A program made the translations under genes and the position numbers. A DNA stretch of 64,000 nucleotides, taken from contig CAVPAE010000001.1 in the NCBI GenBank assembly GCA_963701455.1, positions 84,841 through 148,840 on the forward strand. The letters are read 5' to 3'. The notes below the pieces were generated by a model, which had not been told where the DNA came from, did not search any database, and saw only the letters and a list, made by a program, of their open reading frames with translations. Of this stretch, positions 19,010 through 40,443 are shown piece by piece. Position 1 is the stretch's first letter; every line of letters starts with the position of its first letter. This stretch comes from an uncultured Gammaproteobacteria bacterium (GTDB taxonomy: Bacteria; Pseudomonadota; Gammaproteobacteria; UBA9214).

Positions 19010-20552
19010 CTATTGCTCCTTCTCCATCATCTCCCTCAGGTCCGCCTCGCGCTCGGACGTAACCGATCCTTCCCTGGCGGCCTTTTCGGTCAGCCCGGCA
19101 ATAAACTCGGCCTCACGCTTGAACTGGCGTGCCAGCTCCTCTTGATTGACGGCCACCTTGAAATCGTTCTTGCGCAACCCGATGACATAGTTGTCGAGTT
19201 TTTCGCCCATGTACAGGCGCAAGGTCATGCGGCGCGTCTGCGGCTCGCCCAGGTTAATCAGCTGGGCATCCTGCACGTCCAGCACCTTCACCAGGTGCCA
19301 GCCAGCCGGTGATTCCACCGGCCCACCCAGCACATCGGGTTCCAGGAAGAAGGTAAATTCATCCAGCTCCGGGAAACCGCTGCCGTGCAATACCCAACCC
19401 ATGTCACCCAGGGTCTGCTTCGCGGTGGGATCAATCGAATATTCCATGGCCGCCTGGAACATCGTCAGCTCACCGGCATCGATTCTCTGCTTGATGTCCT
19501 CGGCCTCCGCCTGCGTCTTCAACACAACCATCTGTACCTTGCGCATTTCCGGCACGCTGATCTGGTCCTTGTTGGCCTCGAAAAAGACTCTCAGTTCTTC
19601 GTCGGTAGGCATCCAGTCGTGTATCAGCTGACTGCGATGCAGGTTGATCAGGCGGGTCTTGCGGTATTCGCGAGTCCGCTCAACGTAGGATGGATCCGAC
19701 TCCAGACCGGCGGCGCGCCCTTTTATTGCCATCACCCGGGTATCGATGTATACATCCAGGCGTTTGAGCCGCTCGGTGTCGCTATCGAGAAAGAATTCCG
19801 CACTTTCAGCGCGCTTGTCCGCACCCCGCATCAACTCGCTGACTTCACCCCAGGTAATTGTGGTGTCATCCACCGTTGCTACGACTGTATCCTCCGTGCG
19901 CGCCTCATCACCTTCGGGGTTGAGAACATCAGGCTCTATCTCCACGGTTGCACCTTCACGAATACGTGAGCGCAGCCGGGTTTTCAGGGTATTCAGCTTG
20001 GCGTTGCGCAGACTGGCCTCGATGGCAAACCTGCTGTCCGCCGTCAGTTCATCCCCCTCCTTGGCCGTGCTGCATGAAGGACTCCTGGACCTCTTCCTCG
20101 CTAACCTGGATATCACCGTAGAGGATCTTTGAGCGGTACAGACTCGCCAGGACTGCCTCTTCAAAACGACGGATGTCCTGCTGGTAGACCGGTTGCTGAT
20201 CAACCCCCTTCTGCAAGGCATCGAGGTACAGCAGGTTGGCACTGATTGCCTTGTCCAGCAGGGTGATGATGGTCTGATTGCGCTCCGGCGTCCCGAGTGC
20301 AGGAATCGACAGGCCCACCATGGCCGAACTGTTCAGCATGGTATTGAGCAGGCTGAAGGTGATCTCCTCCGCCTCCACCGTGGCCACCACGTCGGTGAAC
20401 TCCTCGGCCGTCGCGGCCTGTGACATGGGAGCCGCGGTTGGCGGCGCGCTGCTTGCCGCCGTGTCATTCGACGGTTCGCTGCAGCCTCCCAGCAGGAACA
20501 GTCCAAGTACGATCGGTGTCAGGCATGTGAAGCTGATGTTGTTATGGCGCAT
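19010..20552 (-). pseudogene. Parvulin-type PPIase (SurA/PpiD-like) paralog 1, frameshifted
   Basis: The lipoprotein-like N-terminus (MRHNNISFTCLTPIVLGLFLLGGC) with the SurA-like N-domain is in one frame (ORF 20049..20615). The rest, including the parvulin domain (GWHLVKVLD), is in another (ORF 19010..20242). The frames switch at a GGGGG run near 20050. It is collinear with the intact 507-aa paralog at 38986..40443. Confidence 0.7.
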
Positions 20553-20656
20553 GATTGTTTTTTCCGAAGTCAGGTGAACGATATATCCTAATATACAAAT
20601 AGACTGTTGCGCCAATGGCGCCGCAGAACGGTAGCGTTCGAGGTCAAAATAAAGTC

Positions 20657-20689
20657 AAAAAAAAGGGAGAGGAAGTAGCTTCCTCTCCC
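20657..20689 (-). terminator. Intrinsic terminator downstream of cytochrome gene 2
   Basis: On the minus strand there is a GGGAGAGGAAG-CTAC-TTCCTCTCCC hairpin followed by T8. Confidence 0.75.
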
Positions 20690-20739
20690 AAACTTTGAGT
20701 CAGCTACCGGGGAGAAGTTCCTCCCCGGTGGCGTCTTTC

Positions 20740-23700
20740 TTACCAGCCGCAGTTCGAGCCGGCATAGGTGTTGGACATGTACTCCCAGGCCACTTCGGAA
20801 GCGCGTCCCTGTACCAGGTGGTTGTTCCACTTGGTGGTACAGCCCCTGCGCGACAGCGAGCTGCTACGGTCACCGTGACACGAGGTACAGACCGTGTTGG
20901 TCGGATCTTCACCGGCATTGATATCACCACCGACATGACCCAGCACTGCGATCTCCGCCTTGTCCATCATCTCGCGAGAACTGCGACCCTTGTAGGAATG
21001 CTCCGTCCAGGTCCTGTTGGTCGAGGAAATCTCACTGCTGTTATCCTGGTGACAGTTCAGACAGTAATCATCCAGTCCATCGGCCTCGGCCGTGAAGGTG
21101 TGCATCCAGGACACCGCCGCATCGTAGTTTTCCTTGATCGGCTGTCCGTTGTACGTCAGGCCATCCTCGATATGACTCGGAACACCGGCACCATTCACCT
21201 GGTGACAGGTACCGCACTTCAGCGGACCATGCGAACCGTCATGGTTCAGCGCCGCTGCCTGCTTGTACGACGTCGTGTCGATGTCCGGCGTCACCGGATA
21301 CAGACCGTGGATCGACTCGTGACAACCCTGACAGCTGATGTCCTGGTGACCACGTGAGTAACGCATCAGCGAGGCCTTGCGCGGGTAGTTGAACGGCGGG
21401 TAGGCATTGATGTTGCCGCTCTGCTCCACGAACGGTGCCGCGTGGCAGTCCGCACAGTGTGGCTCACCCGCTGACAGCCAGTGATCACGACCGTCGGTCG
21501 CTGCCGAGAACGGTACCGGTACCGCCACCGAACCCGCAGGCAGGGTCGCCTGTGCCGCCGTCACACAATCCGGCGTGGTGCAGAAGTCCATCGCATTCAC
21601 ACTGAAGTCACCGTCAACATCAACGCTGCCGCAGATATGGAACGCCGGGGCACCCGGATACTGCAGCACCGCAGTCGATCAGGCCGGTACCACCACCGGT
21701 CGAGCAGGCTGCCGCACTGGTTGACATTGACCTCAACCGTGGCCACGTTGCCGTCATGCGCCGGATCAACCGGGATGACGCCGAAGTAACCGGCCACGTA
21801 GTTACACAGACCCGGATCAGACTTCCAGATGGTGTGGGTGTCATCCACCGCATTGGTGTCCTTCGGATCCAGCCAGGAAATGGCCTGTGCCGTCGGTAGT
21901 ACCCGACCGCTGCAGCCACATCGCGCCAGCGTAGCACCGGCACGGCTCACGCACGTTGGCCATGCATCACCCGGCTGTGCATCACCAGGTCTTCCACGTT
22001 TTCAGCCTTCCACATCTCCTGACCCAGCTGCTGGTGACAGTTGGTGCACCACAGACCGCCGTTGACACTGTTGCCGTCGTTGAACACGTTGTCCGACAGC
22101 CACTGGCCGACCGGATTCAGGTGCTCAGGTGTCTCGGCACCGTCGGTATCCTTGCCCGGGTTGGAGTGCACGTCACGGCCGACGAAACAGCCGCCGTTGG
22201 CATCGCGGTTATCCGTAGTGGCGTAGAAGTTCTCGCCAGTCAGCGTGATCGGGTAGCCGCTCATGTCGCCGCTGGAACGGTGCGCCGGGTGACAACCCTG
22301 ACAACCACCATTACGGCCCTCACCGTCGCCAAAGACGATGTCACCACCCTCACTGACGCCCCGGTGATTATTATGGATCGCCTCGGTCACCGGCTTGATA
22401 ACCTGACTTCGCCATTGTGCGTGCGCTGATTTAACCACCGCAATGACGTTATCCGCATGACACTTCTGGCAGATCACACTCTCGTGACCCAGACGCGTGT
22501 TCTGCGGGGCTACCCCACCCACATCCGCGCCCGGATAGTTCGCCGTGAAGCTCGTGCCGTGCTCGACGTCATGGCCGTGCAGCATACTGATGGCCGCACT
22601 CTTCAGACGTGAGTACCAGTCCGAGTCACCGGCACCCGTATCGATGCCGTAGTAACCGCTCCAGAAGTTGTACTCCTGCTGCACCAGTGCCCACTGGGCC
22701 GGATCATCGTTCGGCGTGTTCGGCGTCATCGGTGCATTCGAGTGACAACGCTCGCAGTTCGGGATGTCGATCGGTGCCGTACCGAAACCGATCACCGGAT
22801 TACCCGCGCCGTCCAGCACTGCCGTGCTCGTTGGCACCGCCGTCGTAGTGATACATCTGTGCCTTCATGGCCACGTACGGACGTACCGAGTCCTCATCCA
22901 CCAGTCCGGGATCACCGAAGAAGTCGATGCTGTCCTCAAACGGTGTCAGCGGCAGACCCAGGGCCTCCCAGATGTTCGGCGAGGTCAGCATGATCGGCAG
23001 GTTCTCCAGTACCTTCATCTGCGTGAACACCACCGTGCCGTGTTCACCGGAGAAGGTCAGGACGTTGCCGTTGGAGAAACCGCCGCAGTCGTTGGGGGCA
23101 CCGCCCGCGGTAACCGGACCCATCGGGTGCAGTGCCGGACCACAGTCTGCCGGGTAGGCAACCATACCGTCGACACCGAGGCGGATCTTGTCGGCATCCG
23201 CCGAGGTACCCGTGCTGTTGCTGCCTTCCAGATTCTCGTAGAAGTACAGGTGGTTCCACACCGCATTCTGGTAGTTGTCGGTGGGATCAGTCAGATCGCC
23301 GTCACCCAGTACCACGCCGTCGGCACCGTTGTAGGAACCGGTCACGAAGGTACCGTCCGGATTCAGCGCCGCCGAGTCGAACGTGGTGTTCCAGGCCATC
23401 AGCGAGTTGCCCTCGACCGCACTGATCAGCGTGCTGGTCTGGCGCTTGCCGTTGCCGTCGTTACGCGGCTGCGCATCGTGCCAGTACTTCAGCACGTATT
23501 TCTTGAAGTTGCCGCTACCGTCCAGCTCCAGATCGCGCAGTACCGTCTGGCGTCCCAGCGCATCCTTGCCTTCGTTCGGATCGCCTTCCATCAGGCGGGC
23601 ATAATCACCGTTGTCGATCCGGGTCAATGGTGTTGGGCTTGACCACCTGCGCCAGGATGGAGTTGTACACCGGCAGCACGCAGCAGTAGGCAAACTCGAA

Positions 23701-24315
23701 ACCGGTGCAGTGCATGCCCAGCTCGTAGTTCATCATGATCTTGAAATCGGTCTGCGGATTGTCCAGACCAATATCAGGTGGAGGCAGTGGCGGCAGTGTT
23801 GTCGTGGTGGTTGCCGTCCCTGTTGTCGTGGTCGTCGTCGCCGTGGCCGTTGTCGTGGTCGTCGCCGTGGCCGTGGTCGTGGTCGTTACCGGAGCCGTGG
23901 TCGTGGTCGTCGCCGGTGCCGTTGTCGTGGTCGTTGTCGTGGTCGTGGTCGTTGTGGTTCCTCCAGTGACGTTCACCGTGACGCTGGCAGAACAGGTGTG
24001 ACCTTTGTCATTCTGACCATTCAGGGTGGCCTGGAAGTTACCGGCAGCAGCATAGCTGACAGTCACATTCTGTGAACTGGAGCTTGAAGGAGAACCACCG
24101 GCAAATGCCCATGAATAAGCTGTATGGACTTTTGCCCGTGACAGTGCCGTGAAACTGACTGAGCCACCGACAGCAATCTTCGCCGGGCTGGGTACGGTGG
24201 TAATCGAACAGTTGGCAGACTGGGCGGCCTGGGCGTTGGATACACCCAGCAACACCAGCGTACAGAGCATCAGCCCGGTTACTGCAGTTGAAAGAAATCG
24301 TTGCGCTAGAGACAT
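20740..24315 (-). pseudogene. Giant multiheme cytochrome paralog 2, split into at least 5 frames
   Basis: Fragments 23605..24423, 22800..23693, 21947..22837, 21597..21950 and 20740..21669 together rebuild the same architecture as paralog 1. They include the signal peptide, a long poly-Thr linker, the NYELGMHCTGFEFAYCCVLPVYNSILAQVVK motif and all the heme motifs (CERCH, CQKCH, CQGCH, CTNCH, CADCH, CQGCH, CGTCH, CLNCH, CTSCH). Confidence 0.8.
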
Positions 24316-24441: not shown

Positions 24442-24520
24442 ACCTACCTCATTAAGGGTAAGTAGAAGTACTTATTACATAATTTTTATGACGACACCAG
24501 AGAAGTATGCGGATGAAGGC

Positions 24521-24600: not shown

Positions 24601-25549
24601 TCAGGCTGGTGTCATAACAGGTGTCACTGCTTCATCAAAATCATCTATCTTGCTTGCTGCTACAAACAAATCAAAGCTCTGACTCCTGATTAGCGGGATT
24701 TTCGAGCAAACTTCGTCAAAAGCCACGAGCCCACGCGCCACCGATTCCGCCGCGGGAATCCATTTCATGACGGGCAGCAGATCACTCATTCCACACAGGG
24801 GCTGGGAAAGAAAAGAAAAATACTTTGTCGCATTGATCCGGAACCCCGCAGCTTCAATGGTCTTCAACCAGGGTTTGGATCTGAATGCCTTATGATCATT
24901 ACCAAAGCGCGCCATTCGCCTGTTTACAATGCTCCGCGGCAAGCGCAGCAATATCGAGTCATCATTGGGTTCGGAAAGCAACAAGGTTCCGCCGGTTTTC
25001 AATACCCGATGGGCTTCTGCAAGGGCTGCCCGCTCATTGGCCATATGATGCAAGGAGCCGCGAAAACATACGACATCGAAAATACCGGAGGGAAACGGCA
25101 TTTTCTCACCCGGACAGGCTATCCACTCCATCTTTTCGTTGTCACCCAGCCTGGCCTTTCCCTGGATCAGCATTGCCTTCGAAATGTCCATACCGAAGAC
25201 GCGCTGTCCTCTGCAGGCACAGGTCCCGGGAGAGGTCGCCATCACCACAGCCGCAGTCGAGAATATAGCCGGGATCAGGAGGCAAGTGCTCCAGGAATTG
25301 CCGGTTCCAGTAGCGAGAGTAGACTTCCGAGAAGTCTGTGCTATATCGCTTGTCATACTCACCGGAAAGTTCCTTGTGAAGATCGATCTCGGCCTGGTGC
25401 TGCTCTTCCAGGTCACCACCTGCCGTGAAGTCGACTATTCCCCGGTCTATTGAAAACTCTCTGGAACAGGAACTGCACTTGCGCGCTTCCCAATCCAGTT
25501 CGCTCTTGCATTCCGGACATCTGAGTACTGTATTAGATTTCTGATCCAT
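24601..25549 (-). pseudogene. Class I SAM-dependent methyltransferase with an N-terminal zinc ribbon, frameshifted
   Basis: The N-terminal fragment (ORF 25142..25549) carries the zinc ribbon (CPECKSEL..CSSCS) and motif I (ILDCGCGDGD). The rest of the methyltransferase fold (VVCFRGSLHHMANERAALAEAHRVLKTGGTLLLSEP) is in the frame of ORF 24601..25419. Confidence 0.6.
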
Positions 25550-25558
25550 TGAAGACCA

Positions 25559-26449
25559 CTATTGATTCCGGCGTGAGATACCAGTTCCCAGTCTCCAGAG
25601 TGCCAACAGCAAAACCGGAAAGAGAATATTAATAATAAACTCCAGCACCAGTACCGGCGGAATCGCCTCGGGAGCTACACCCCACGCCCCTAGCAATGTC
25701 AGCAGAGAGCCTTCCCGAACACCAATCCCCGCAATACTGACCGGAAGGCTCGCCAGTGCACCAACACTAACCGTTATCGCGACAATATCGAGCCAGTTCA
25801 GGTCAATGTCCACCGCCCGGAATATCAGCACATTGCTGGACACGAACATAAAAAAGCCGGCGCCCGTTAATATCCACCCTGCCAGCAACGCATTCCGCCC
25901 CAGCCTGCGTCCAAACCAGTACGATATCAGGAAGTACGCCAGCAACAAAACGATTCCGGACAGTAGCAGCAGGTTTGCCGATACCCCGTACTTCGTACTA
26001 ACCACGCCGGCTGTCAGAACAATCGCGACCGGAAGGTACAACAGGTCTGATAACTTATCGAATACCGTAACCCAGACTCTCTTGCCGGTATCCATCCCGG
26101 TATTGCGGAGCAGATATATGCGCGAGAACTCTCCCAGGCGTGATGGAGTAATCGACCCTATTGCGACACTCAGAAGATACAGGTCGATCCACGCACGGAA
26201 GGGCAAGCGTTGCGTCGCAAGCCGTTCAACCCACAGGCGCAACCGCAGCATGCGAAAACAGTAAACCAGACTAACGGCCAGGGCACTGCCGAGGAACAAC
26301 GGTATCGATACGTTCTGCAATCGATCCATAGACCCCGCCCAGTCTATATCCCGAAGCAGGTAATAAACCCACAGCAGACCGCCCAGGGAGATTGCGGCTT
26401 TCGCGATGTACCCGGCCCTGGCAGTGGACGCTTTTTTATCGATACGCAC
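25559..26449 (-). CDS. Flippase-like integral membrane protein (lysylphosphatidylglycerol-synthase TM-region family, UPF0104-like)
   Basis: It is a 296-aa polytopic protein. Its topology and size match the flippase-like family that often partners GT2 polyprenyl-phosphate glycosyltransferases. Confidence 0.5.
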   Translation of the reverse strand: MRIDKKASTARAGYIAKAAISLGGLLWVYYLLRDIDWAGSMDRLQNVSIPLFLGSALAVSLVYCFRMLRLRLWVERLATQRLPFRAWIDLYLLSVAIGSITPSRLGEFSRIYLLRNTGMDTGKRVWVTVFDKLSDLLYLPVAIVLTAGVVSTKYGVSANLLLLSGIVLLLAYFLISYWFGRRLGRNALLAGWILTGAGFFMFVSSNVLIFRAVDIDLNWLDIVAITVSVGALASLPVSIAGIGVREGSLLTLLGAWGVAPEAIPPVLVLEFIINILFPVLLLALWRLGTGISRRNQ

Positions 26450-26506
26450 GTTGAATACTATTCTGGCCGAATAAAGATATAACGCAGCAGCAATCGACAG
26501 TTCCCA

Positions 26507-27553
26507 TTATGTCGGTATTCTCACACGAACCAGCGGGCCAACCGAGCGGTGAACCCATCGTGGCAAGTGACGCCACAGCGCTATTGCGGGAGCCAGAGAC
26601 GGATTCTCCGGCAAAATCTGCGGCACCCTATGACCCGGCTTCAGAAGATAATAATAATTCAGGGGCGTCTCGACCGCGCCCCACTTGCGCTTGAAAAAAC
26701 GCTTCCCCGAATCCGCCCGGGTGCGCCCGAAATCGAAATTCGTCACCTTCCCTGCTGTTATGGTTTTTTCAAAATACGCCCATAGCAGTTTATCCATCAC
26801 CGGTATATGCCGGTAATTCGCGTCATTTATCGCAGCATGCAATATTGCCTTGTCCTCATGGTATAACACCATCAATGCACCAATCGGGGTTCCCTGAACA
26901 CTTCCTGTTATGATTTCTGCCTGCTGGCCAAATTTCTCGACAAGCGTCGGGTACCAGGACCGCTTGTGAATGGGTGTGCCGTGATAAGCTGCATGCTGCT
27001 CGTTAAGCTCCTGGAATACGTCAAGCTGACTGCCTTCACAGAAGGACACCTGCACGCCGAACTTATCCGCCTTTCTGACACTTGTCCGGGCATTTCCCGT
27101 TATCGTGTCCTTCCACATCTGCTCTACTGTATCGGGAAGAGTCAGCTCATAGCGAACGAAATCTCCTCCGGATTCGAACCCTTGCAGCGGACTCTCAAGT
27201 TCCCTGATTTCCAGGGCAAACGCCTTTGTTGCACTGAAGTATTCGTGCAGAGGCAACTGCAATTGTTCTTCAGAAAACGAAGCCGGGTCTTTGTTGTATA
27301 TAAAGCCCCCGTAATTCCCGAATGGCACTGAAATCAACATGGGCCGCAACTTGCCTATTGGCTTGATCTCGACCAGGGGCAGCAGCCAGACAAGCTCCCC
27401 GGAGTCGTCGACGCAGGCCAGTCGATGCAACCGTAACCGGGGATACACCTGTGCAATCAGTTCGAGCCAGCGCGGATCCTGATAAATTGAACCGTAGCTG
27501 GTTTCCCCGCAAAGCTTGCGCCACTCGTCTGCCGGGCAACAACGGATTTTCAC
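26507..27553 (-). CDS. FemAB-family / BioF2-like GNAT-fold acyl- or aminoacyltransferase
   Basis: It is 348 aa. The size and the pattern of conserved aromatic and charged residues match the FemAB/CelD-like fold. The assignment is by resemblance only. Confidence 0.45.
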   Translation of the reverse strand: MKIRCCPADEWRKLCGETSYGSIYQDPRWLELIAQVYPRLRLHRLACVDDSGELVWLLPLVEIKPIGKLRPMLISVPFGNYGGFIYNKDPASFSEEQLQLPLHEYFSATKAFALEIRELESPLQGFESGGDFVRYELTLPDTVEQMWKDTITGNARTSVRKADKFGVQVSFCEGSQLDVFQELNEQHAAYHGTPIHKRSWYPTLVEKFGQQAEIITGSVQGTPIGALMVLYHEDKAILHAAINDANYRHIPVMDKLLWAYFEKTITAGKVTNFDFGRTRADSGKRFFKRKWGAVETPLNYYYLLKPGHRVPQILPENPSLAPAIALWRHLPRWVHRSVGPLVRVRIPT

Positions 27554-28374
27554 GCAGCACGTGCCTCAGCACGAAACTCAATGAATAGTACGAGAAAAAA
27601 CAGCAGCACAATAAACCCTGCACCCGTGATGATCATGCGACGTTTATTATTTGATGGATCACTTGCGACAGCAACACTCTCTTCCAGTATAACCAAGCCA
27701 TGTTGCCCACTGATTGAATACTCGATAATTGCGTAAACACTGTGTCTGCTTCCGGGCAAGGCCCCGTTGTTCTTTAAGGAATAGCCAATCTGCTGTTCTT
27801 CTCCGCCAGGGATACTCAGTTTGTCACTCCTCCCCGCCACGACAAGCTCGGCAGGTGAAACCATTGTTAACCGGGCCTCAAGGGGGGAATCCATGGTGTT
27901 CCTGATGCGCAGATCCAGGCTCCCGTCACCAGCCACCTGCTCTGCAACCATCTCTCCCGCAACCGGAACTTCCAGCGGAAGACTTTTCCCGATCTGAACG
28001 CCCGTCACGCTAACCAGTGAGTACGGGTACATGTAGGCGTCGTGAAAGCGTAATTGTACGATCAGTGGATACACGCCGGCTTCGGGAAAGGCCAGTTCAC
28101 CAACAGGAAAGCTGTGGACCCATATCCGCCCTCCATCAAATGCAACATGAGGTACGGTTTCAAGGCCTGTTTTCACTCCGGCCAGTGTGAGATAGGGAGT
28201 AACCACGAGAGCATCCTCGTTGCCCCTGTTGTCAATCTCCAGTCGAACATCCACCGATTTTTCTGTTACGGTAACCGAGGTTTTTACGACCATTACAATT
28301 TCTGACGCAAGGGCAGGAGCCGGGGAAAACACCATGCACACAATCAATGAAAGGAATCTCCATCGGCAGATCAT
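27550..28374 (-). CDS. Hypothetical single-pass membrane protein (signal peptide, beta-rich periplasmic domain, C-terminal TM anchor)
   Basis: It has an N-terminal signal peptide (LSLIVCMVFSPAPALA) and a C-terminal TM segment (IITGAGFIVLLFFLVLFI). Confidence 0.4.
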   Translation of the reverse strand: MICRWRFLSLIVCMVFSPAPALASEIVMVVKTSVTVTEKSVDVRLEIDNRGNEDALVVTPYLTLAGVKTGLETVPHVAFDGGRIWVHSFPVGELAFPEAGVYPLIVQLRFHDAYMYPYSLVSVTGVQIGKSLPLEVPVAGEMVAEQVAGDGSLDLRIRNTMDSPLEARLTMVSPAELVVAGRSDKLSIPGGEEQQIGYSLKNNGALPGSRHSVYAIIEYSISGQHGLVILEESVAVASDPSNNKRRMIITGAGFIVLLFFLVLFIEFRAEARAA

Positions 28375-30226: not shown

Positions 30227-30228
30227 AT

Positions 30229-33072
30229 TCAGGATTCCTTTTCAGGGCCGTAAAAGACAATCGGCCGCGACCATGCAAACGGTTTGCCGTCCACCTCCAG
30301 CCGGATCCTGTAATAATAAGTGCCACCGGGCTGGAAAATTTCCTGAAATCTTTCCTTCGACCCGGCTGCATCCCTGGTAACAAGGACATCCTGAAACTCC
30401 GGGTCCGTAGCAATCTCGAGGCGGAATCGTTGCCTGCCGTTTGGAATCCCGATGACATTGTTCCAGAAAAAGTCCTCCGTAGCCTCTGAAAGAACCTGCC
30501 CCTGTTGCGGCCGTATGGTGACCGGGATACGCAAATAAGCTTCGGACACAACCTTGACCACGAAGACACCGATGAACACCAGTGAGATCATTACCGGAAC
30601 ATTCCGCAGAACCAGCCCTGTCCCTGGTCTGCCTGCCTCGCCAGCTCCTTTACCGCTTGCAATAGCGGGGACCGGGCGTCGCATCCCGAATATCACCAGT
30701 GCGGCAATACTGGCCAGTGCAATCCAGAAGCCGACGACCGACCAGCGCCAGTTATTCGGACCGGTATAGCGCCAGGACACTTCATGAGTTCCGGCCGGCA
30801 CCAGTACCATCTGCAATCCCGGGGAAATGCGGTAGATGGGTGTATCCGTACCATCGAGAGAGGCTCGCCAGCCCCGATAGTACATTCTCTTGAATAGCAC
30901 CGGAGCCAGGTCTTCTGTCACTGTAAGCTTAAAAACTTCTTCCTTGCGATCGGCTCGAACAACTTCATATTCCAATGGCTCCAGCTTCATCTTGCCAGCA
31001 TCCCTGGCAGCCATTCCGGTTTTAAGCTTCAGCAATATCTGCGCTACCGGCTTCTTGCCCAACGATTCCAGTTGCAAATGCTCAACATCTTTCAGTACAG
31101 CAGACGCTTCCGCCCCGGCTCCCAAAACCACCAGGTTTATCAGCGGGGCAATTCTTTGTTCATCTTCGGCCGACAAACCGGAGTTTGAGAAATTCACGAT
31201 GGGAGGTATTTCTGATGCACCATCGCGAACCCGGGCAAGCCACTTCTCCATCAACAAATGCCATTCCCGCTCCGTTCCAAAAAAACCTGCCAGGTTCGCC
31301 GGCATCAGGTCGAAGTCTCCGAATTCCCCCTTGATTCGAACCATCTCCCAGAAGTTTGTTTCGAACAGAAGCTCGGTATTTTCATGCCATGCCATCGGTT
31401 CCTTGCGGTAAAAGGGACTGTTGACCACGTAGCGAATATTGAACAGCTTCTGAATAGCATAGTTATCCCTGAGAGGCCCCCGGAATCTATGTAAAAGGAG
31501 ATCGTAGATTCCGCCAACCACCTCGAAACCGCAGATAAAGACCAGGCGATCCGACATCAGCGGCAATATATTGTAGAGTACGGAATCGTGGTGCAACTGG
31601 GGAAAGCCCATAACATTGCCTGCCTCACCCACCTCCAGTTGATCGACCACTGACTGGAACTCCGCCCACTCACGGACTATTCCAGGCTTCATTGCAAGCC
31701 TGCCGTTTTCCGTATAAATATTTCTGACATCAATGATCCGCTTGGCGGCAACCGTCCTTTCCGTGTAGCCGCTCGCAAGTGCCCCGGCAACACATAGCGC
31801 TATTACAGCCACCAGGGAGACTCTCAATGAATCCTTGCGTATCGCTGCCGCCTTCGTGAACAGCCAGCCGATCGCAAAACCTCCCAGCATAATCGCTGTC
31901 CAGTCGAGCATGAAGATGCCGTGAATATTCTGGAACTGCTTTGCAAAGGGTATATAGTCAATCAAGGGGAAATCATCGGGCCCCATAAACAGAACCAGGG
32001 AAATGAGAAAAGACAGGCCCAGAAAAGCGCGGACAGGTGAGTTGCAACGGACCAGTACCAGTATCCATCCAAGCACGGCAAAAGTGGTGATTACCGGAAA
32101 CCGCCAGAATTGACCGTTCTCGATCCATCCCCACTCCGCATCAACAATCCATTCGCTCCCCCCGAATGGCCCCGAAAACCTGGTTGTATCGAAAATACCG
32201 CCTAAAAATAACTGGCGCAGAGTCTCCGCGGTCGTCGACACGATCACGTCGAAATAATTACGTCGGCTCAGATACGGATCGAATACCTGCGCCTCCGGAG
32301 AGGTGGCAAAGGGAATCAGCCAGATGGCCACCAGGCAGATGGCAGGAATACTCCATAGCAAGGTACGGACAAACGTGGCCTTCCAGTTCCAGTTCGGCTC
32401 CAGCGCGGCAAGCGACAGCAACATACAGGGTGCGAGTAAAGTGAAACAGTAGGCGATATAGGGATGCGTTATAAACATGCACGGAAACACGATCGCGAAT
32501 AACAGTCCATGCTCCCCTGTTTTAAACAGCCGCCATAGTGAACCCACAGCCAGGGGGAACAGCAGAATCGCTATCTGTTGTTTATAAACACCCAGATACT
32601 GGTACGCATCAATAGAGTGACCCCACAGGCTGATTGCCAGTGGCGAAAGCAGCGCGGCACCAAGCGAGGCCCCTAGCCCCATCCCCAGTAATCTGCCACC
32701 CAGAAAAATAGTAATCGGATAGAGACTGAAACCCAAAAGAACAACCAGTTTCAGGGATTCTTCTACCGTAAGTCCTGTTAAAAAATGGGTGGCCGCAGTA
32801 ACAGCGTAAAACCCGGGAGGCCGCAGTATAAAAATCGGAGTGCCAGCTGCATAAAGCTGGTTCCAGCCAAGGAAACGGCCTTCGCCCTGCCAGATCCGGA
32901 CCAGTTCATTAGCGAACGCAACATGGACGTGGTCATCGCCGGCATTAAGATAGCCATCGTTCAGTGTCGGCAGGTGGATGTAGAAAGCCCAGCACACCGC
33001 CGCAAAAAGCAACAGTATTGCTGCGATACGTACGCCACGCTCGCTGATTCTCCAGGTCACCATACTATTCAC
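30229..33072 (-). CDS. Large GT-C-fold membrane glycosyltransferase (YfhO/ArnT/PMT-like) with a C-terminal periplasmic domain
   Basis: It is 947 aa with more than 12 TM helices, followed by a soluble C-terminal domain of about 250 aa. It lies adjacent to the GT2 and deacetylase genes. Confidence 0.5.
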   Translation of the reverse strand: MNSMVTWRISERGVRIAAILLLFAAVCWAFYIHLPTLNDGYLNAGDDHVHVAFANELVRIWQGEGRFLGWNQLYAAGTPIFILRPPGFYAVTAATHFLTGLTVEESLKLVVLLGFSLYPITIFLGGRLLGMGLGASLGAALLSPLAISLWGHSIDAYQYLGVYKQQIAILLFPLAVGSLWRLFKTGEHGLLFAIVFPCMFITHPYIAYCFTLLAPCMLLSLAALEPNWNWKATFVRTLLWSIPAICLVAIWLIPFATSPEAQVFDPYLSRRNYFDVIVSTTAETLRQLFLGGIFDTTRFSGPFGGSEWIVDAEWGWIENGQFWRFPVITTFAVLGWILVLVRCNSPVRAFLGLSFLISLVLFMGPDDFPLIDYIPFAKQFQNIHGIFMLDWTAIMLGGFAIGWLFTKAAAIRKDSLRVSLVAVIALCVAGALASGYTERTVAAKRIIDVRNIYTENGRLAMKPGIVREWAEFQSVVDQLEVGEAGNVMGFPQLHHDSVLYNILPLMSDRLVFICGFEVVGGIYDLLLHRFRGPLRDNYAIQKLFNIRYVVNSPFYRKEPMAWHENTELLFETNFWEMVRIKGEFGDFDLMPANLAGFFGTEREWHLLMEKWLARVRDGASEIPPIVNFSNSGLSAEDEQRIAPLINLVVLGAGAEASAVLKDVEHLQLESLGKKPVAQILLKLKTGMAARDAGKMKLEPLEYEVVRADRKEEVFKLTVTEDLAPVLFKRMYYRGWRASLDGTDTPIYRISPGLQMVLVPAGTHEVSWRYTGPNNWRWSVVGFWIALASIAALVIFGMRRPVPAIASGKGAGEAGRPGTGLVLRNVPVMISLVFIGVFVVKVVSEAYLRIPVTIRPQQGQVLSEATEDFFWNNVIGIPNGRQRFRLEIATDPEFQDVLVTRDAAGSKERFQEIFQPGGTYYYRIRLEVDGKPFAWSRPIVFYGPEKES

Positions 33073-33087: not shown

Positions 33088-33160
33088 TTGTAGGAGCGGC
33101 GCCCTCGCCGCGATTCTGTTTTTTGACGATTTAATTGCGGCGAGGGCGCCGCTCCTACAG
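33088..33160. repeat. REP-like inverted repeat (two 28-bp arms, TTGTAGGAGCGGCGCCCTCGCCGCGATT)
   Basis: The arms are near-perfect reverse complements around a 17-nt loop. The same arm sequence recurs at 40554..40615. Confidence 0.7.
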
Positions 33161-33596: not shown

Positions 33597-35198
33597 TTAA
33601 TGCTCCTCGTTGATCGAAAAATTCAGTATCTCTATGCGAGCGGACCTATAAAGCAATCCCGGGGCAAGCGCCTCTCTCACAATCATCAGGGTATCGCTGA
33701 GGTCGATCATCCCGTCCGGCGCGCCCTGTGGTCGCACGTCTCCATGCTGGAGATGCGACGTGGTGGCGGTCAACAACCCCAAAGTGATTCGCTCGGCAAG
33801 CAGCACGTCCGCGGCGTCCACGGCCCCGGAGGCATCCAGGTCGCCATCCGCGAAGTTGAAGATCAGCGGCAGCGGGATCATTCACGTCCAGGAAGCCGTC
33901 ACCATCATCATCATCGTCGATGTCGTTGTCCTCGCCGTCGTTGTTGGTGTCGAGCGGATTGGGATCACTCACATCCGGCATCCCGTCGTTGTCGTCATCC
34001 GGGTCGATATCATTGTCGAACCCGTCGTTGTCGGTGTCGAGCGGGAATGAATCACTGCCGTCCGGTATCCCGTCATTGTCATCATCCGGATCGCAGGCAT
34101 CTCCCATGCCGTCGAATTCCGTGTCCAGCTGGCTGGAGTTGTCCACCAGGGGACAGTTGTCATCGCAGAAGACGCAGACATCGCAGGGCTCACAGACGCC
34201 ATCCCCGGCCCCCGGTACAGTGTCGCAGTCCTCATGGAACGGATATTCACAACCCAGACCGACAATGCCTGCAGTGCAGGTCCCCCAGGGACTATTGTAA
34301 GGCTCCGCCGGCCAGTCGAGCAGTTCCGTGCACAGGGCATCTCCGGCAACACCCGAGCCGTCACCATCCGCGGGGATCTTGTCGTCGTCTTCATCGAAGA
34401 GATAGAGGAGTTGCTTGCCTGCCACGGTAGTGTCCGCAGGAAAGTACTCCATGGACGGGAGCGAACCCTCATCACAGGCGGCCCCCGAGTGGTCTGCGGA
34501 ATAGATGCCGATCGTCGCCGTCTCTTCGGTTATGGGTATTGAGACCGCTCCAACCCATGGCTGCCGTAATTGAACTGGATGCGCCCGTCTTCATAGAGGA
34601 TCAGCTGGATGTTGTTGCCGGTGGTGTTCGGGTCCCCGGATGAACTTCCGCCCTGCCAATGAAAGACATCCTCCCAGGTCACGATGAACCGCTTGGGTGA
34701 TGACACGGAATCCAGCCGCCACCAGATCTTGCCGTTTTTCTCGCCTTGAGGCACGCCGGAAGCATATTGGGTCACAATATCCGACCAGAAGAGCACGATC
34801 ATCGGATAGGGATAAAAGTCCTGGTTCAGGTCTCAAGGGGAAAGTGATAATTATAGTTATCGTCCCAACCCCCCAACGGACGGCACGGCGTCCGGAGGGG
34901 GTAATAATGTTGATCCCAGGGTGACGAAGCCATTGGCATTGATGTAGACCTCATCGTAGTTATTACAGTAGAAAGGAAAATTGAATCCCAGTGCGATACC
35001 GGGGCCAGTCTCGAAGGGGTAAAAATGGTCATCTTCCAGCAGGGTATCGGCCCCGAAGACAGGCTCCGCCGGCCAGGCCGCATCGGTGATTTTCAGTACA
35101 TACTGTTTGGCAGTAAACGCTGGCAGGTACTGCAAGTGCAAGTATCAGGACCAGGAAACAGCCTTTGGTATACAACCTCTTTGCATGACTGGTTAACA
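33597..35198 (-). pseudogene. Secreted Ca-binding protein with thrombospondin type-3-like repeats and a dockerin-like C-terminus, broken by at least 4 frameshifts
   Basis: The signal peptide (MLTSHAKRLYTKGCFLVLILALAVPA) is at about 35198. N-domain fragments are in ORFs 34857..35141 and 34530..34802. The TSP3 repeats ([22 protein letters not shown]...) are in ORF 33646..34452, and the dockerin-like segment ([18 protein letters not shown]) is in ORF 33597..33881. Confidence 0.5.
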
Positions 35199-35798
35199 TG
35201 TCACTGACCTCCGGCTATTCGATCTGGTGCCTTGTGCTCCGTGGCAGGTTGTTCTAGTCTGGCTTGTGCCGGTCTCGCCCTCGATGTAGGCCTCGATATC
35301 GGCCGCCGTGATCTGACCGGTATAACGTGCAACCGATGTGCCGCTCGGGGACACGATAAAGGTCGTTGGCAATGCCATGATCAGGCCGAAAGGCGTGGCC
35401 GGTGAGGTGCCCCAGGGCAGGATCGGGTAGGTCACATCCACGCTGTCCAGGAAAGCCCGCATCCAGCTCAACCTGATGTCCTCGAAGTTCACTCCCAGCA
35501 CGACCGCATCCTGGTCCTTGTGCCGGTCATGAAAGTCCGATAGCTCCGGCATTTCCTGGATGCACGGCGGACAGGTCGTCGCCCAGAAATTGACAACCAC
35601 CCACTTGCCCCGGTATTCCGCTAGCGTATGCAGATTGCCGTCCATGTCCTTCAGGGAAAGTTCGATAGGTATCCGTTCGGTCCCTGCCTCGGCGGCTGTC
35701 AGCGTAGCCGGTCCACAACAAAAAACAGCCACCAGCAACAGAACGGCCGACCGGAATGACCTGGATATCAGCATGGTGGTTCGCGTATCGGCTGACAT
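35193..35798 (-). CDS. TlpA/ResA-like thiol:disulfide oxidoreductase (second copy)
   Basis: The active site is WATTCPPCIQEMP, and there is an N-terminal anchor. Confidence 0.75.
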   Translation of the reverse strand: MSADTRTTMLISRSFRSAVLLLVAVFCCGPATLTAAEAGTERIPIELSLKDMDGNLHTLAEYRGKWVVVNFWATTCPPCIQEMPELSDFHDRHKDQDAVVLGVNFEDIRLSWMRAFLDSVDVTYPILPWGTSPATPFGLIMALPTTFIVSPSGTSVARYTGQITAADIEAYIEGETGTSQTRTTCHGAQGTRSNSRRSVTC

Positions 35799-36331
35799 GA
35801 CGGGCCCCCGCTATTCGCCCGTGCGGCGCAAGCGCCACGACCTGACGGACGCCTCGATCTCCAGCAGGTCGAAGGCAAGCGCCCCGCCGGGGGCAATGCC
35901 CGCGAAGCGCACCCGTGGCCTTGACCACGTCCTGACGCCGGATGCCCTTGTTCTAGCATCCATTCATCCTGTGCGGGGGTAATCCGTATCCGGATCACGT
36001 GGACAGACTGTTGTACGGGCCTGGCCGTGAAGTGGGTTTCACCGATAATGGTCTGTCGGCTCTTGGCCGGATCCACATCCTCCTTGTCACGGTAGATGTG
36101 ATAGAACTTGAACCGGTCTTCAAAGACGGTGCCCAGGTATTTTTCCGGTTCCCTGTGCATGAGATCCAGCGGGACATCCCGCATGGTCAGGACCTGCTCA
36201 TCCGCTGCAACCGGGATCCAGGGGCTGGTATTCGGGTTTTCAGCGTTTGTTGCAGTTGCAGTTTCAGCCGCGGCCACTGTCGTCATGGAAAGCGACATCA
36301 TCAGTAATGCCAGAACAATTTTTTTCATCAC
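35768..36331 (-). CDS. Hypothetical secreted protein with an uncertain C-terminus
   Basis: It has a signal peptide (MMKKIVLALLMMSLSMTTVAAA). The Gly/Arg/Pro-rich tail looks like read-through rather than real protein. Confidence 0.35.
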   Translation of the reverse strand: MMKKIVLALLMMSLSMTTVAAAETATATNAENPNTSPWIPVAADEQVLTMRDVPLDLMHREPEKYLGTVFEDRFKFYHIYRDKEDVDPAKSRQTIIGETHFTARPVQQSVHVIRIRITPAQDEWMLEQGHPASGRGQGHGCASRALPPAGRLPSTCWRSRRPSGRGACAARANSGGPSCQPIREPPC

Positions 36332-36509: not shown

Positions 36510-38835
36510 CTACCGCAACCGGTGCGCCAGGTCCACGGCCATTTCGTAATCCGCCCAGTAGGGACCGTCCTTCGTGATGATGTCCGGATACTCTGACGGC
36601 ACGCCGTGTTCATTCACGGCATGGCAGCCCCCGCACTTCAGCGGGCCGTGGGTTCCATCGGGGTTCAGCAGGGCCGCCTGTTCATAGCTGGCGATATCCA
36701 CCGCCGGATTCACCGGGTACAGACCGTGAGTCGATTCATGGCAACCCTGGCAGGTGATCTGCGCATGCCCCTTGGAATAGCGCATCAGCGCATACTTGCC
36801 GGGCTGGTCGATGGGGAAGGCCCCGCCGCCCATGCTCTCGACATACGGCGGCTGATGGCAGTCGGCACAGTGCGGCTCACCGGCAGCCAGCCAGTAGTCC
36901 CGGCCATGGGTCGCGGCGTCATAGGGAACCGCCACGCCCTCCTTCCCGTTCGGATCCGTATCCACAATGATCACCGACTGGTCACCGTCCTCATCGGGCG
37001 GCGTCATCACCGGCTTGCCCTTGTCATCCACCTTGATGCGTGCAATCGGGGCGATGGTCTGCCCGGTACGATCCCAGGTGCGGTACACACCACTGCTGGT
37101 GTCCTCGCCCTTCATCGGGCTCTTGGGATTGATATAGTCCTGCTTCAGGTCTTTGACCTCGACACCCACGGCGGCGGCGATCTTCTCCAGCGGCTGATTG
37201 CGCAACGTCTGGCCGGTCTGATTGACGGCATCGGTAAGATGATCCGCCTTGTACAGTTCGCGCGAGAGCATGTTGTGGCAGTTGGTGCAGTACAGTCCCT
37301 TGTCCTTGCCCCCGGTCATCATCACCTCGGAGAGCAGGTACTCGCCCACCGGATTGAGGTGAACTGGACGGTCTCCGCGCCATCGGTATTCCGCCCGGGA
37401 TTGCCGTGTGCACATCCCGTGCCCGTGAAACACCCCTTGGCATCGCGGATGTCGCCCTTGGCAAAGAAGTTTTGTCCGTCCTCGGTGAGCGGAAATTCGT
37501 CCATGCTCAGGTCGCTGCGGTGCGAGGGGTGGCAACCCTGGCAGCCGCCGGCAAAGCCAAGACTGTCCGGCAACGGGTTGTTGCGCTGATGACTCTTGTG
37601 GATGGCCTCGGTCAGGGGAGAGATCAGGTGTTCGGGATCGGCAAGATTGGCATGGTCTTTCTGCACGTCCTGTTCTTCCATTTCGCCGGCCTTCTTCGAA
37701 AACAGCCGGCCAATGACATTGTCCGCATGGCAGTCCTGGCAGAGCACGGTGCCCCGTCCCAGGCGCAGAAAGTTGTTGCCGCCGGCCGGCCAGTTGGCCA
37801 GAAAATCCGTGCCATGATTGGCGTCATGGATCTCGAGGATCGAGATGGCCGCAGCCTTGAGCTGTGCATACCATTCACTGGAGCGGCGCACCTCGCGCCA
37901 GAAGTCATGTTCCTGCTTGTATTTGAGGTACTTGTCGCCATTGGCACGCTCGTTGGAATGACAGCGTGCGCAGTTGGGCACATCGATGGGATTGACCCCG
38001 AAAAACCGCACGGGCTTCCCGGAGGAATCGATCACCGGCTCCCGCGTTTCCGGGTCCACCAGGGTCACCACGGATTTCTGGAAGGGCTGCACCATGTCTT
38101 CTTCCACGTGGATGATCGCGGTGAACATGGTCGTTAAATGGGGTCAGCGGCAGGCCCAGGGCCTCCCAGATCCCGGGATTGGTCAGCTTGATGGGCACGT
38201 TCTCCATGGCCGGAGAATCAGTGTAGACCACGGTCCCCGTTTCACCGGAATAGCGCAGGAAGCCCCTGCCCACGTGCTGCCCCGTCGGCCCCTGGTTGAA
38301 GCCGATCGGTGTATCCACCCCGACATGAAGTTTTTTGGCATCGGCGCTGGTATTGTCCGGATTGGACCCCTCGAGATCCTTGTAGAGGTAGAGGTTGCTG
38401 AAGTAGACATCGGGAAGCTTTTCATTCTCCCCGTAGACCGACGCCCCAGTAGGCCAGTTTCTTGGAAGCCGAGTAGGTGTTGGGCACGCCCCTTGGGCTC
38501 TCATGGGTATAGGCGAGCTTGAAGCGCTTGTCGCCATCCACCAGCACCTCATGATCATCGGGGTCGGCTCCCAGCAACACGGGTTTTTCACCGTTCCTGC
38601 CGGTCTTCACTACCTGGGCAAGGATGGAATTGTAGGGCGGCAGTACGCAGCAGTAGGCGAAGTCGAAGCCGGTACAGTGCATGCCCAGTTCATAGTTGAT
38701 CAGGATCAGGTAATCCCGGGGCGGGTCCTGTTCCTTGCCGGCCGGCGCACCGGTTACGGCCTGTGCCGTACCGAGCAAAAGCATGAGAAACACCCCAACC
38801 CGGCATTGCCTGAAACTCTGGAACAACCTGGTCAT
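36510..38835 (-). pseudogene. Multiheme cytochrome paralog 3 (shorter, no Thr linker), split across at least 4 frames
   Basis: Fragments 38422..38982 (signal peptide plus NYELGMHCTGFDFAYCCVLPPYNSILAQVVK), 37905..38591, 37322..38128 (CARCH, CQDCH, CQGCH) and 36510..37535 (CTNCH, CADCH, CQGCH, CGGCH) are collinear with paralogs 1 and 4. The start was placed at MTRLFQ, which follows GAGGGGGAG. Confidence 0.75.
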
Positions 38836-38985
38836 TATCTCCCCCTCATTCGTGACTGCGATCGCGCCTTGGGCGGCCGCCTTTATGCTCGGTACAGGTG
38901 CTCCCGCATTATACCCACCACCTTTTGGAGCGGCGCCTCGCCGCAATGGGACGGGATACATTGCCCCGCTGGTTGAACGCACGCC

Positions 38986-40443
38986 TCAGGAAGCCCCCTG
39001 CTCCTGCTGTGGCGTCACTTCAGGCTGAGCCGGAACCTGCCCCATTTCCTCTTCGAGCAGTCGGTTCAGCACATCATTGTAGACTTCAACCTTGTAACGG
39101 TTTTTCCTCAGGTTGGCGGTGTACTCGTTCATGCGTTCCTTGATCATCATGCGCCGGGTCTTGCGCCAGGTGTCGGCCTGCGAGATGTTGGTAGACTCCG
39201 CCTCGCTGATTTCCAGAACCTTGACCAGGTGCCAGCCGGCGGGTGATTCCACCGGCCCCCCGATTTCGTTCAGCGGCAGGGAAAACGTCAGCTCCTCGAG
39301 TTCGGGAAAGCCGCTGCCCTGTGAGACCCAGCCGATTTCTCCCAGGGTCTGCTTCGCACCCGGATCGATGGAGAAATCCTTCGCCGCCTCGTAGAAGGTC
39401 ATCTCTCCGGACTCGATCTCCTGCTTCACCCGTTCGGCATCCTCTTTCACCATCATGACCACCATCTGTACCTTGCGCGCCTCGGGGATGGTGATCCTGT
39501 CCCTGTGTTCCTTGAAATAGGCACGGATCTCGTCGTCGGTGGGCTCCAGTTCCTCGATCAGCTGGCCCCGGTGCATGCTGACCAGGCGGAGTTTCCTGAA
39601 CTCGTTGAGCCGCTCCTGGAAACGCGGGTCGGCTTCCAGGTTTGCGGCCCGCGCTTTCCTGAGCATAATGCGCCGGTCGATGAAATCATTCAGCACCGCC
39701 AGGCGTTTTTCCACCGAATCATCGCCCTTCGGCGAGGAAAACAGGCCCCTGACATCGCCCCAGGTAACCGCTTCCTGGTCCACCCTTGCGACAACTGTAT
39801 CACTTTTACGGGTCACGTCCTGTGACGGGTCGAGTTGCGTCTGGTCAACCGTGACCTCGAGGCCCTCCCTGAGCCGCTCACGCAGTCCTTTCTTGCGGGC
39901 GGTGAACTTATCCTTGCGCAGCGAGGCCTCGATGGCCGTGCCCAGGTCCTTGGTAAAGGGCGTTCCCTCGACAATATTATTCTCGTAGAACGCCATGATC
40001 TCCTCATCAGAGACCGGGATATCACCAATCACGACCTGTTGCCGGTACATGGTAACCAGCGTGGACTCGGTGAAACGTTCCACCTCATACTGATAGACAG
40101 GGGCCTGGTCCATGCCCTTGTCCAGAGCGTCGAGGTAGAGCAGGTTGGCGCTGACGATCTTGTCCAGCAGTGTGATCCGGACCTTGTTTCTCTCCGGGGT
40201 TCCCGGTGGCGGGATGTTCATGCCGATAACACCGGAACTGTTCAGCATGATCTCGATCTGGTTGAAGGTGATGGGCTGATCGCCCACCCGGGCGATAATC
40301 TCGTTGGGCTGTTCCCGGGTGATGACCTGGATACCGACCTGTGCGCCGGCCTTGTCCGCTTCAGGCGCAGCACTTGCCGAAACGGGCACGGTAGCGAGCA
40401 GGGTACAGACCAGCGTAATGAATACAGAAATAAATCTTGGCAT
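38986..40443 (-). CDS. Parvulin-type PPIase (SurA/PpiD-like) paralog 2, intact
   Basis: It has a signal peptide, a SurA-like N-domain and a parvulin domain (DFSIDPGAKQTLGEIGWVSQGSGFPE...GWHLVKVLE). The start was placed at MPRFISV. Confidence 0.8.
   Translation of the reverse strand: MPRFISVFITLVCTLLATVPVSASAAPEADKAGAQVGIQVITREQPNEIIARVGDQPITFNQIEIMLNSSGVIGMNIPPPGTPERNKVRITLLDKIVSANLLYLDALDKGMDQAPVYQYEVERFTESTLVTMYRQQVVIGDIPVSDEEIMAFYENNIVEGTPFTKDLGTAIEASLRKDKFTARKKGLRERLREGLEVTVDQTQLDPSQDVTRKSDTVVARVDQEAVTWGDVRGLFSSPKGDDSVEKRLAVLNDFIDRRIMLRKARAANLEADPRFQERLNEFRKLRLVSMHRGQLIEELEPTDDEIRAYFKEHRDRITIPEARKVQMVVMMVKEDAERVKQEIESGEMTFYEAAKDFSIDPGAKQTLGEIGWVSQGSGFPELEELTFSLPLNEIGGPVESPAGWHLVKVLEISEAESTNISQADTWRKTRRMMIKERMNEYTANLRKNRYKVEVYNDVLNRLLEEEMGQVPAQPEVTPQQEQGAS

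Follow-up and report, generated by a model that had tools for sequence, protein, structure and literature searches.

In a 64,000-nucleotide stretch of the genome of an uncultured gammaproteobacterium (GTDB lineage UBA9214; assembly GCA_963701455.1, contig CAVPAE010000001.1, positions 84,841 to 148,840 of the forward strand), hereafter the window, we found that two minus-strand genes for parvulin-type peptidyl-prolyl isomerases (PPIases), PPIase1 (19010-20552) and PPIase2 (38986-40443), each follow a gene for a very large nine-heme cytochrome of ~1000-1200 residues, cyt2 and cyt4, respectively. On balance, we think that the two genes represent a distinct SurA/PEB4/PrsA-type subfamily of periplasmic chaperones, dedicated to very large, Sec-exported nine-heme cytochromes. 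A preliminary description of the window had listed both PPIase copies; its coordinates for PPIase2 proved exact, and PPIase1 is a 1543-nt gene with one frame break.

Linkage of the PPIase to one cytochrome family

When a cytochrome alignment was used to scan 185,579 species genomes, it matched 144 stretches and returned 78 loci, whose six-frame open reading frames (ORFs) were searched with hidden Markov models (HMMs) for the PPIase and the cytochrome. Among big cytochromes with enough downstream DNA, 60/62 are followed immediately by a family PPIase in the same orientation, at a median gap of 250 bp. The two that lack one (in L055 and L069; L numbers label homologous loci from the genome and metagenome scans) are the last cytochromes of cytochrome-PPIase-cytochrome arrays, like cyt1 in the window. 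The reverse scan, of metagenomes with the PPIase alignment as seed, added 79 loci, in which a cytochrome lies directly upstream of 56/59 family PPIases with enough upstream DNA; one of the three exceptions, L135, has just a 1.25-kb gap. These counts mark a cluster-embedded PPIase, one kept beside multiheme cytochrome genes across genomes. Cytochrome and PPIase thus co-occur at about 95% in both directions, and since this arrangement recurs in more than 100 independent loci, it is far beyond chance and makes it very probable that the PPIase is dedicated to the big cytochrome. The preliminary description had named missing co-occurrence in other genomes as evidence against its proposal of a cargo-specific chaperone, and no such absence was found.

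The two proteins have also diverged together. Over 86 modules, PPIase distances are correlated with cytochrome distances (Mantel r 0.77, with 0/999 permutations as high), and for 67/86 modules, the module whose PPIase is closest also ranks among the three closest in its cytochrome. Together with the counts above, this bears out the cargo tie of the earlier proposal; the chaperone role itself stays a prediction.

More than 723 full-length PPIase homologs and more than 535 cytochrome homologs were found, every one of the latter annotated "hypothetical." Many of the listed PPIases and cytochromes share longest contigs of equal size, and one pair has adjacent locus tags (D6721_08275/D6721_08280). 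The host loci belong mostly to sulfur-oxidizing Gammaproteobacteria, including "Ca. Thiodiazotropha," Sulfuricaulis, Thiogranum, Ectothiorhodospiraceae, and Sedimenticolaceae, with further hosts among metagenome-assembled genomes (MAGs) of Methylococcaceae, Desulfobacterales, Nitrospirota, and Methylomirabilis. A separate PPIase lineage in L042 (16491-17898) and L126 (5118-6521; 86% identity) follows not a cytochrome but a homolog of the small secreted protein that the window encodes at 13126-13551. With this second PPIase, some clusters carry two helpers.

Domains, fold, and signal peptides of the PPIase family

Both proteins match the Pfam models Rotamase, Rotamase_2, and Rotamase_3 (E 1e-12 to 1e-16), with 59-62 bits for PPIase2 and 47-60 bits for PPIase1 against gathering cut-offs of 21.7-27, and so contain a parvulin domain. 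In their N-terminal halves, both resemble the corresponding part of the EpsD-family model (E 3.6e-14 and 3.4e-11), and PPIase2, an intact 485-residue protein identical to the database protein P0001, has a weak SurA_N_3 match (E 0.0034) under the cut-off. A family profile built from 15 members matches the solved structures of PEB4/Cbf2 (3rfw, E 1.4e-26), HP0175, SurA, and PrsA, and the AlphaFold2 model (mean pLDDT 83, pTM 0.68) has PEB4, HP0175, SurA, and PrsA as its best Foldseek matches. The call of a SurA-like N-terminal domain plus a parvulin domain, made earlier from the letters of the window, is therefore upheld.

Residues ~195-470 form a full PEB4-like unit, which starts with a helical chaperone segment, continues with a single parvulin domain, and ends in a C-terminal helix. 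The assignment to the PEB4/HP0175/PrsA type comes from the profile match over residues 195-432, a Foldseek match (E 4.8e-11, target-normalized TM score 0.58), and the same order of secondary-structure elements in the AlphaFold2 model. Moreover, the chaperone segment at residues 215-315 is duplicated internally as residues 47-158 (hhalign probability 98.4%, E 1e-14), giving the family a doubled cradle with a single parvulin domain. The family scores far below the equivalog models of SurA (NF008038, 58.5 bits against a cut-off of 394) and PpiD (NF008054, 48.3 bits against 493), and below the EpsD model TIGR02925 (53.0 and 43.2 bits against 108.9). It has one parvulin domain rather than the two of SurA and a cleavable signal peptide or lipobox rather than the transmembrane anchor of PpiD, and no lptD-surA-pdxA context was seen around the PPIase genes of the window. 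Judged by profiles and predicted fold, both belong among the parvulin-containing chaperones of the SurA/PEB4/PrsA class without being orthologs of SurA or PpiD.

The PPIase2 lineage has an ordinary Sec signal peptide, and PPIase1 and several orthologs carry a lipobox (LLGGC or LLGAC). In the window, the predicted lipoprotein signal (LLGGC) lies at the PPIase1 N terminus (20450-20552), and such signals are also found in L069, L117, and L146. Given these two kinds of signal, the paralogous helpers of the PPIase1 and PPIase2 lineages may work at different places in the envelope.

The nine-heme cytochromes

The presumed cargo is a family of big cytochromes spanning ~950-1450 residues. In the window, cyt4 (40828-44481, minus strand; identical to P0121) is an intact 1217-residue protein with nine CxxCH motifs and matches to Cytochrome_C7 and NF033662; it has a signal peptide, acidic disulfide repeats, and a Thr-rich linker. 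Nine motifs are also present in the intact cyt1 (14951-18466, minus strand) and, distributed over several frames, in cyt2 (20740-24315, minus strand). The short, divergent paralog cyt3 (36510-38838, minus strand) has seven within homologous segments; an eighth match (CGQCH, ~37727) falls in a frame without homology there. Both cyt1 and cyt4, having multiple CxxCH motifs and an export signal, are multiheme c-type cytochromes, and in alignments of 16 and 22 family sequences the nine Cys-x-x-Cys-His positions are invariant and N-terminal signal peptides are present.

Several features of the cytochromes stand by themselves. The N-terminal half is heme-free over ~320 residues in cyt1, cyt4, and homologs, where it holds the invariant motif MNYELGMHCTGFEF-YCC, and the family shares an invariant C-terminal Cys-Gly ending in Trp (CGW-COOH). 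Homologs bear variable N-terminal domains of cell-surface type (PKD, Big, cadherin-like). Compared with cyt2, cyt1 is a mosaic, 88-92% identical over its residues 156-759 and 52-67% identical over the C-terminal third, which suggests recombination or gene conversion between the paralogs. A cytochrome sequence profile found no match in the PDB, the AlphaFold2 model of cyt1 from the 22-sequence alignment was of too low confidence for use (mean pLDDT 48.6), and a literature search found nothing specific on this nine-heme family or its PPIase.

One big cytochrome and one PPIase form the conserved unit

The preliminary description had assigned one PPIase to each cytochrome pair, and this part has to be revised. 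Next after the PPIase, 72 modules have a gene other than a cytochrome, 25 have a short cytochrome, and 6 a big one, so that a second cytochrome follows the PPIase in only ~30% of modules. Because the downstream gene varies in this way, the conserved unit is one big cytochrome, then a terminator, then one PPIase, and not a cytochrome pair.

The modules of the window have separate histories. PPIase1 and PPIase2 are 48% identical, and their upstream cytochromes 65%. The closest relatives of PPIase2 (L080-L086, 66-79% identity) have a big cytochrome-PPIase-short cytochrome layout wherever the downstream DNA suffices, and L081 matches the window's PPIase2 cluster gene for gene, down to a YfhO-like neighbor. 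The closest relatives of PPIase1 are in L130 (90% identity to PPIase1), L117, L144, and L069, the last with a big-PPIase-big layout. In such a layout, shared with L055, L069, and L122, cyt1 occupies the slot of the second cytochrome and has no PPIase of its own downstream. Two PPIases occur together in ten loci; identity between such copies is 39-55% in nine of these loci and 78% in the tenth, and every copy is closer to a PPIase from some other genome than to its partner. These within-locus identities and closer relatives elsewhere rule out recent tandem duplication of the module. They place the PPIases of the window as old paralogs, each in its own module lineage, whose modules, by these sequence comparisons, were duplicated long ago and have since moved as units. 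The notion that chaperone and cargo were duplicated together thus holds in an ancient sense and fails as recent co-duplication. We picture two anciently diverged modules, one with a soluble helper ahead of a short cytochrome paralog and the other with a lipoprotein helper ahead of a second big cytochrome.

Expression signals around the module

An intrinsic-terminator-like hairpin separates the two genes in both modules of the window. The one between cyt4 and PPIase2 (40752-40779, minus strand) has a 12-bp G+C-rich stem followed by TTTTTTT, and the one between cyt2 and PPIase1 (20665-20689, minus strand) an 11-bp stem followed by T8, with a near-identical hairpin in L130. Such hairpins occur in 78/125 distinct cytochrome-to-PPIase spacers, drawn from loci L002-L158, compared to 1/125 shuffled controls, always ~50 nt past the end of the cytochrome gene. 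Upstream of the cytochrome, a strict -24/-12 sigma-54 motif is found for 22/93 big cytochromes and on the antisense strand for 3/93. The window has such a promoter-like motif, TGGCCTGCAATTTGCA (44542-44557, minus strand), 61-76 nt upstream of the cyt4 start, with a near-identical sequence in L083. Farther upstream of cyt4 lies a gene for a sigma-54 enhancer-binding activator with PAS, AAA+, and Fis-type helix-turn-helix domains (45173-46564, minus strand; Pfam Sigma54_activat E 3.8e-63, PAS, HTH_8), with homologs in 39 loci by tblastn and 61 loci by clustering. A separate sigma-54 promoter for the PPIase was considered and rejected, as the strict motif occurs in 0/125 of the spacers. Given the conserved hairpin and the lack of this motif in the spacers, transcription probably reaches the PPIase gene by read-through, which would yield less PPIase than cytochrome, and a low level fits a catalytic or transient helper.

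Two further elements lie in or near these regulatory regions. A copy of a REP-like palindromic element, TTGTAGGAGCGGCGCCC, sits inside the cyt4-to-PPIase2 spacer. On the plus strand, a perfect sigma-54 consensus, TGGCACTCATATTGCT (46869-46884), stands between the activator gene and ccmA; it suggests that the heme-attachment operon is co-regulated in the window, and among the other loci it recurs in L122 alone.

Frameshifts in the window

Besides PPIase1, several genes of the window are broken in frame. PPIase1 is split into two frames at ~20050-20075 and, compared to its intact ortholog in L130, has one inserted base (+1) at ~20071; this comparison rules out a GGGGG run near 20050 as the break site. 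Against L130, many breaks are also seen in cyt2 (at least 4 frame changes; 87% identity to the intact ortholog). Against L081, there are three in cyt3, which is orthologous to an intact 772-residue gene, one in a small secreted-protein gene, and three in a TSP3-repeat gene (33651-35111). In all, at least 12 disruptions are clustered in 19.0-24.4 kb and 33.6-38.9 kb, most of them single-base insertions outside homopolymer runs, along with a few deletions and longer indels. The neighboring cyt4, PPIase2, cyt1, activator, and 947-residue membrane protein genes are intact, as are ~30 kb of other genes.

Two explanations compete for this pattern. Bacterial gene decay is deletion-biased, and because insertions dominate here, we hold assembly error rather than true pseudogenes to be the considerably better explanation; the pattern fits patchy, unpolished consensus errors of long-read assemblies. 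In the other explanation, the cyt2-PPIase1 module and cyt3 would be true pseudogenes, leaving PPIase2 as the only working PPIase and making one helper per pair functionally untrue here. The concentration of breaks in two segments beside intact genes speaks for decay, as do frameshifted tandem-array copies in other loci such as L001 and L043. Yet, apart from the predominance of insertions, the broken genes have no nonsense substitutions and no large deletions relative to their L081 and L130 orthologs, and the pieces of the broken cyt3 are closer to the L081 protein (75-90% identity) than are the intact cyt4 (64%) and PPIase2 (72%). We therefore give decay a clear minority share of the probability, and the frameshift reported earlier in the first PPIase copy, present in the letters of the window, is probably an artifact of assembly. 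Frameshifted cytochrome or PPIase copies in tandem arrays of long-contig MAG loci (L001, L043, L051, L068, and L079) may reflect the same assembly problem or a recurrent decay of extra modules.

Gene neighborhood and maturation context

The module genes lie in two minus-strand clusters. Cluster A reads sigma-54 activator, cyt4, PPIase2, cyt3, a small gene for a secreted protein (35814-36331; orthologous to a 171-residue gene of L081 and present in 13 loci), and a TlpA/ResA-like periplasmic thiol:disulfide oxidoreductase (35193-35798) with a CPPC motif and Pfam AhpC-TSA, Redoxin, and Thioredoxin matches. Cluster B reads cyt2, PPIase1, cyt1. Facing it on the plus strand are a DUF2059 gene convergent with cyt1 (14251-14685; Pfam E 5.5e-13; in 32 loci) and a second TlpA-like redoxin (13658-14239), recognized by its CPPC motif and by homologs in other loci. 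The small conserved secreted protein at 13126-13551 (minus strand) has no Pfam match and is found in 32 loci by tblastn and 53 loci by clustering.

Divergent from the activator gene, a cytochrome c maturation (ccm) block occupies 47101-54497 on the plus strand. Its CcmB (47965-48654) is identified by Pfam (E 9e-72), and its ccmA, ccmC, ccmF, and ccmG have homologs 70-88% identical in other loci; we infer the ccmH/I part from ORF order alone. The ccm genes adjoin the cytochrome-PPIase cluster here and in ~9 other loci. TlpA-like redoxins are the most frequent conserved neighbor (66-74 loci), and a rhodanese, absent from the window, is found in 36 loci, often as the next downstream gene. Redoxins of the CcmG/ResA class act in cytochrome c maturation, and the TlpA-like redoxins together with the adjoining ccm block fit a cluster equipped with maturation helpers of its own.

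Between the clusters, a block at 24601-33072 has a lower GC content (0.50-0.53 compared to ~0.60 elsewhere) and encodes a methyltransferase, an LPG-synthase-TM protein, a FemAB/GNAT-like protein, a GT2 glycosyltransferase, YdjC, and the 947-residue YfhO-like membrane protein, which is 85% identical to its L081 counterpart and in the same position. A glycosylation link between these genes and the poly-Thr linkers of the cytochromes is conceivable. The REP-like element TTGTAGGAGCGGCGCCC has 10 matches in the window against 0.19 expected by chance, with copies at 33088-33160, 40548-40621, 47211-47227, and 56894-57364, the last a tandem array of a 103-bp unit (4.6 copies, 96% matching) that bears the motif.

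A proposed dedicated chaperone and its alternatives

If the PPIase is a chaperone dedicated to the big cytochrome, the following course of events can be proposed. The PAS-domain sigma-54 activator would turn on the big cytochrome gene, and the terminator after it would let a fraction of the transcripts reach the chaperone gene, yielding much cytochrome and little helper. The unfolded apocytochrome would then enter the periplasm, where the duplicated helical cradle may hold the chain while the Ccm system attaches nine hemes and neighboring TlpA-like thioredoxins keep the cytochrome cysteines reduced. Finally, the helper would release the cytochrome or escort it to its final site, probably at the cell surface. 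With Met in place of the first catalytic His, the helper would be mainly a holdase, resembling SurA.

Several observations weigh against this reading. The strong terminator puts co-transcription of PPIase and cytochrome in question, so that the two may not be co-transcribed, and the sigma-54 search of 125 spacers turned up no promoter from which the PPIase gene could be read. Any neighbors inherited together would be expected to show synteny and co-divergence. The PPIase of L098 and the second copies of L126 and L042 have no upstream cytochrome, and last cytochromes of the cyt1 type have no PPIase gene of their own. Neighbor clustering across loci found no porin or secretion gene conserved near the module. 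The active site is degenerate as well: among 147 family sequences, the first active-site His is replaced by Met in 130 (QMVVL in the family compared to KHILV in PEB4 and RHILV in HP0175), and the Asp equivalent to Pin1 Cys113 is present in just 98.

The second His is retained in 142/147 sequences, and the intact catalytic set of dual His plus Cys/Asp was not found as a feature of the family. Isomerase activity is thus doubtful on these grounds, and the label PPIase may overstate the chemistry. The chaperone function of SurA needs no isomerase activity, and with Met replacing the first catalytic His, a holdase role seems more likely for the family than an isomerase role.

The same degenerate active site, together with the lipobox of the PPIase1 lineage and the strict pairing and co-divergence with the cytochrome, would also suit a protein that stays with the mature cytochrome as a non-catalytic partner or adaptor, such as a docking subunit or a membrane anchor, especially in the lipoprotein lineage. 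However, the conserved terminator predicts far less PPIase than cytochrome, a single PPIase often lies between two cytochromes, and the fold and nearest solved relatives (PEB4, SurA, and PrsA) are those of chaperones or foldases, which leaves a stable partner unlikely. We consider it more improbable still that the true client is another protein of the cluster, for instance the one encoded next after the PPIase or some other secreted protein. The terminator does part the PPIase from the upstream cytochrome, the PPIase of L098 neighbors just a short cytochrome, and the second PPIase of L042 and L126 follows the small unknown-protein gene, but it is the upstream big cytochrome that is constant (~95%), whereas the downstream gene is variable (72 none, 25 short, 6 big; often a rhodanese). 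That these are general housekeeping chaperones, SurA or PpiD equivalents beside cytochromes by coincidence, is very improbable despite the SurA-like fold class, given the SurA and PpiD scores far under the equivalog cut-offs, the one parvulin domain, the missing lptD-surA-pdxA context, two or more paralogs per locus, and a family seen only alongside the cytochrome and in few species (144 stretches matching the cytochrome in 185,579 genomes).

Beyond a dedicated chaperone, we suggest only tentatively that the genes form a hitherto unrecognized, widespread, sigma-54-controlled redox module, in which the degenerate parvulin with its duplicated cradle would be an obligate, client-specific pilot that brings the ~1000-residue nine-heme cytochrome across the periplasm to the cell surface, with soluble and lipoprotein pilots matched to different cytochrome lineages. 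Its carriers would be sulfur-oxidizing Gammaproteobacteria, lucinid-clam symbionts among them, together with some Nitrospirota, Desulfobacterales, and Methylomirabilis.

Expression and maturation of large multiheme cytochromes are difficult, and the cellular folding route of these proteins is little understood. The PPIase is a concrete co-expression candidate for producing the cytochromes of this family, which chemosynthetic symbionts (Thiodiazotropha) and sulfur oxidizers of sediments commonly encode, and cytochrome and PPIase together make a marker pair for spotting the module in metagenomes. Moreover, with client and chaperone both defined, they lend themselves to studies of how client specificity arises among chaperones of the SurA type.

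Comparison with known systems

The nearest solved relatives are PEB4/Cbf2 of Campylobacter jejuni (3rfw) and HP0175 of Helicobacter pylori, with which family residues ~195-432 align end to end (E 1.4e-26 and 4e-21). The family differs from them in an extra N-terminal chaperone module (~110 aligned residues of a 170-residue N-terminal region), in having Met where they have the first active-site His, and in being tied genetically to one cytochrome family, whereas PEB4 and HP0175 are general chaperones of outer membrane proteins or adhesins. With SurA of Escherichia coli (1m5y; Foldseek E 3e-9) it shares the periplasmic location, the helical N-terminal chaperone domain plus parvulin, and presumably a chaperone function independent of isomerase activity; in contrast to SurA, it has one parvulin domain rather than two, a client implied by gene context, and no lptD-surA-pdxA surroundings. 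The EpsD-family PPIase of exopolysaccharide loci (TIGR02925) gives the best NCBIfam match to the N-terminal chaperone region (E 3.6e-14) and is likewise a locus-specific parvulin helper, but the window PPIase scores 53 under a cut-off of 108.9 and has another genomic context.

On the cargo side, the C-terminal heme region has weak similarity to domains II/IV of MtrC/MtrF, outer-surface decaheme cytochromes of the MtrC/OmcA type (cyt1 24.6 bits, Pfam cut-off 30), a similarity also precomputed for many homologs. Unlike these, the cytochromes here have nine hemes rather than ten and no lipobox, and they have no MtrAB-like porin or periplasmic partner.

By gene context alone, the closest parallels are clusters of large multiheme cytochromes in which a PPIase is conserved as a core gene. 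UetB lies in the Uet cluster of Tenderiales and Gallionella (PMC10734462; 10.1101/2022.05.06.490989), and the 16/26-heme operon in the partner bacteria (SEEP-SRB) of ANME includes a PPIase among its core genes (PMC5539420). GSU2074, the PPIase gene of the Geobacter omcZ operon, has a strong electrode-growth defect in transposon sequencing (Tn-Seq) (PMC5585712), a defect that would fit a contribution to the working of the cytochrome, and an analogous proposal exists for MofB with the multicopper oxidase MofA (PMC5566968). The module described here differs from the UetB, GSU2074, and ANME-partner clusters in its cytochrome family, with nine hemes in ~1000 residues and a heme-free N-terminal half, and in having no porin, NHL, or beta-propeller genes. 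Multiheme clusters with a dedicated PPIase gene are thus a known kind of arrangement, and what is new is this nine-heme-linked and very cleanly conserved member.

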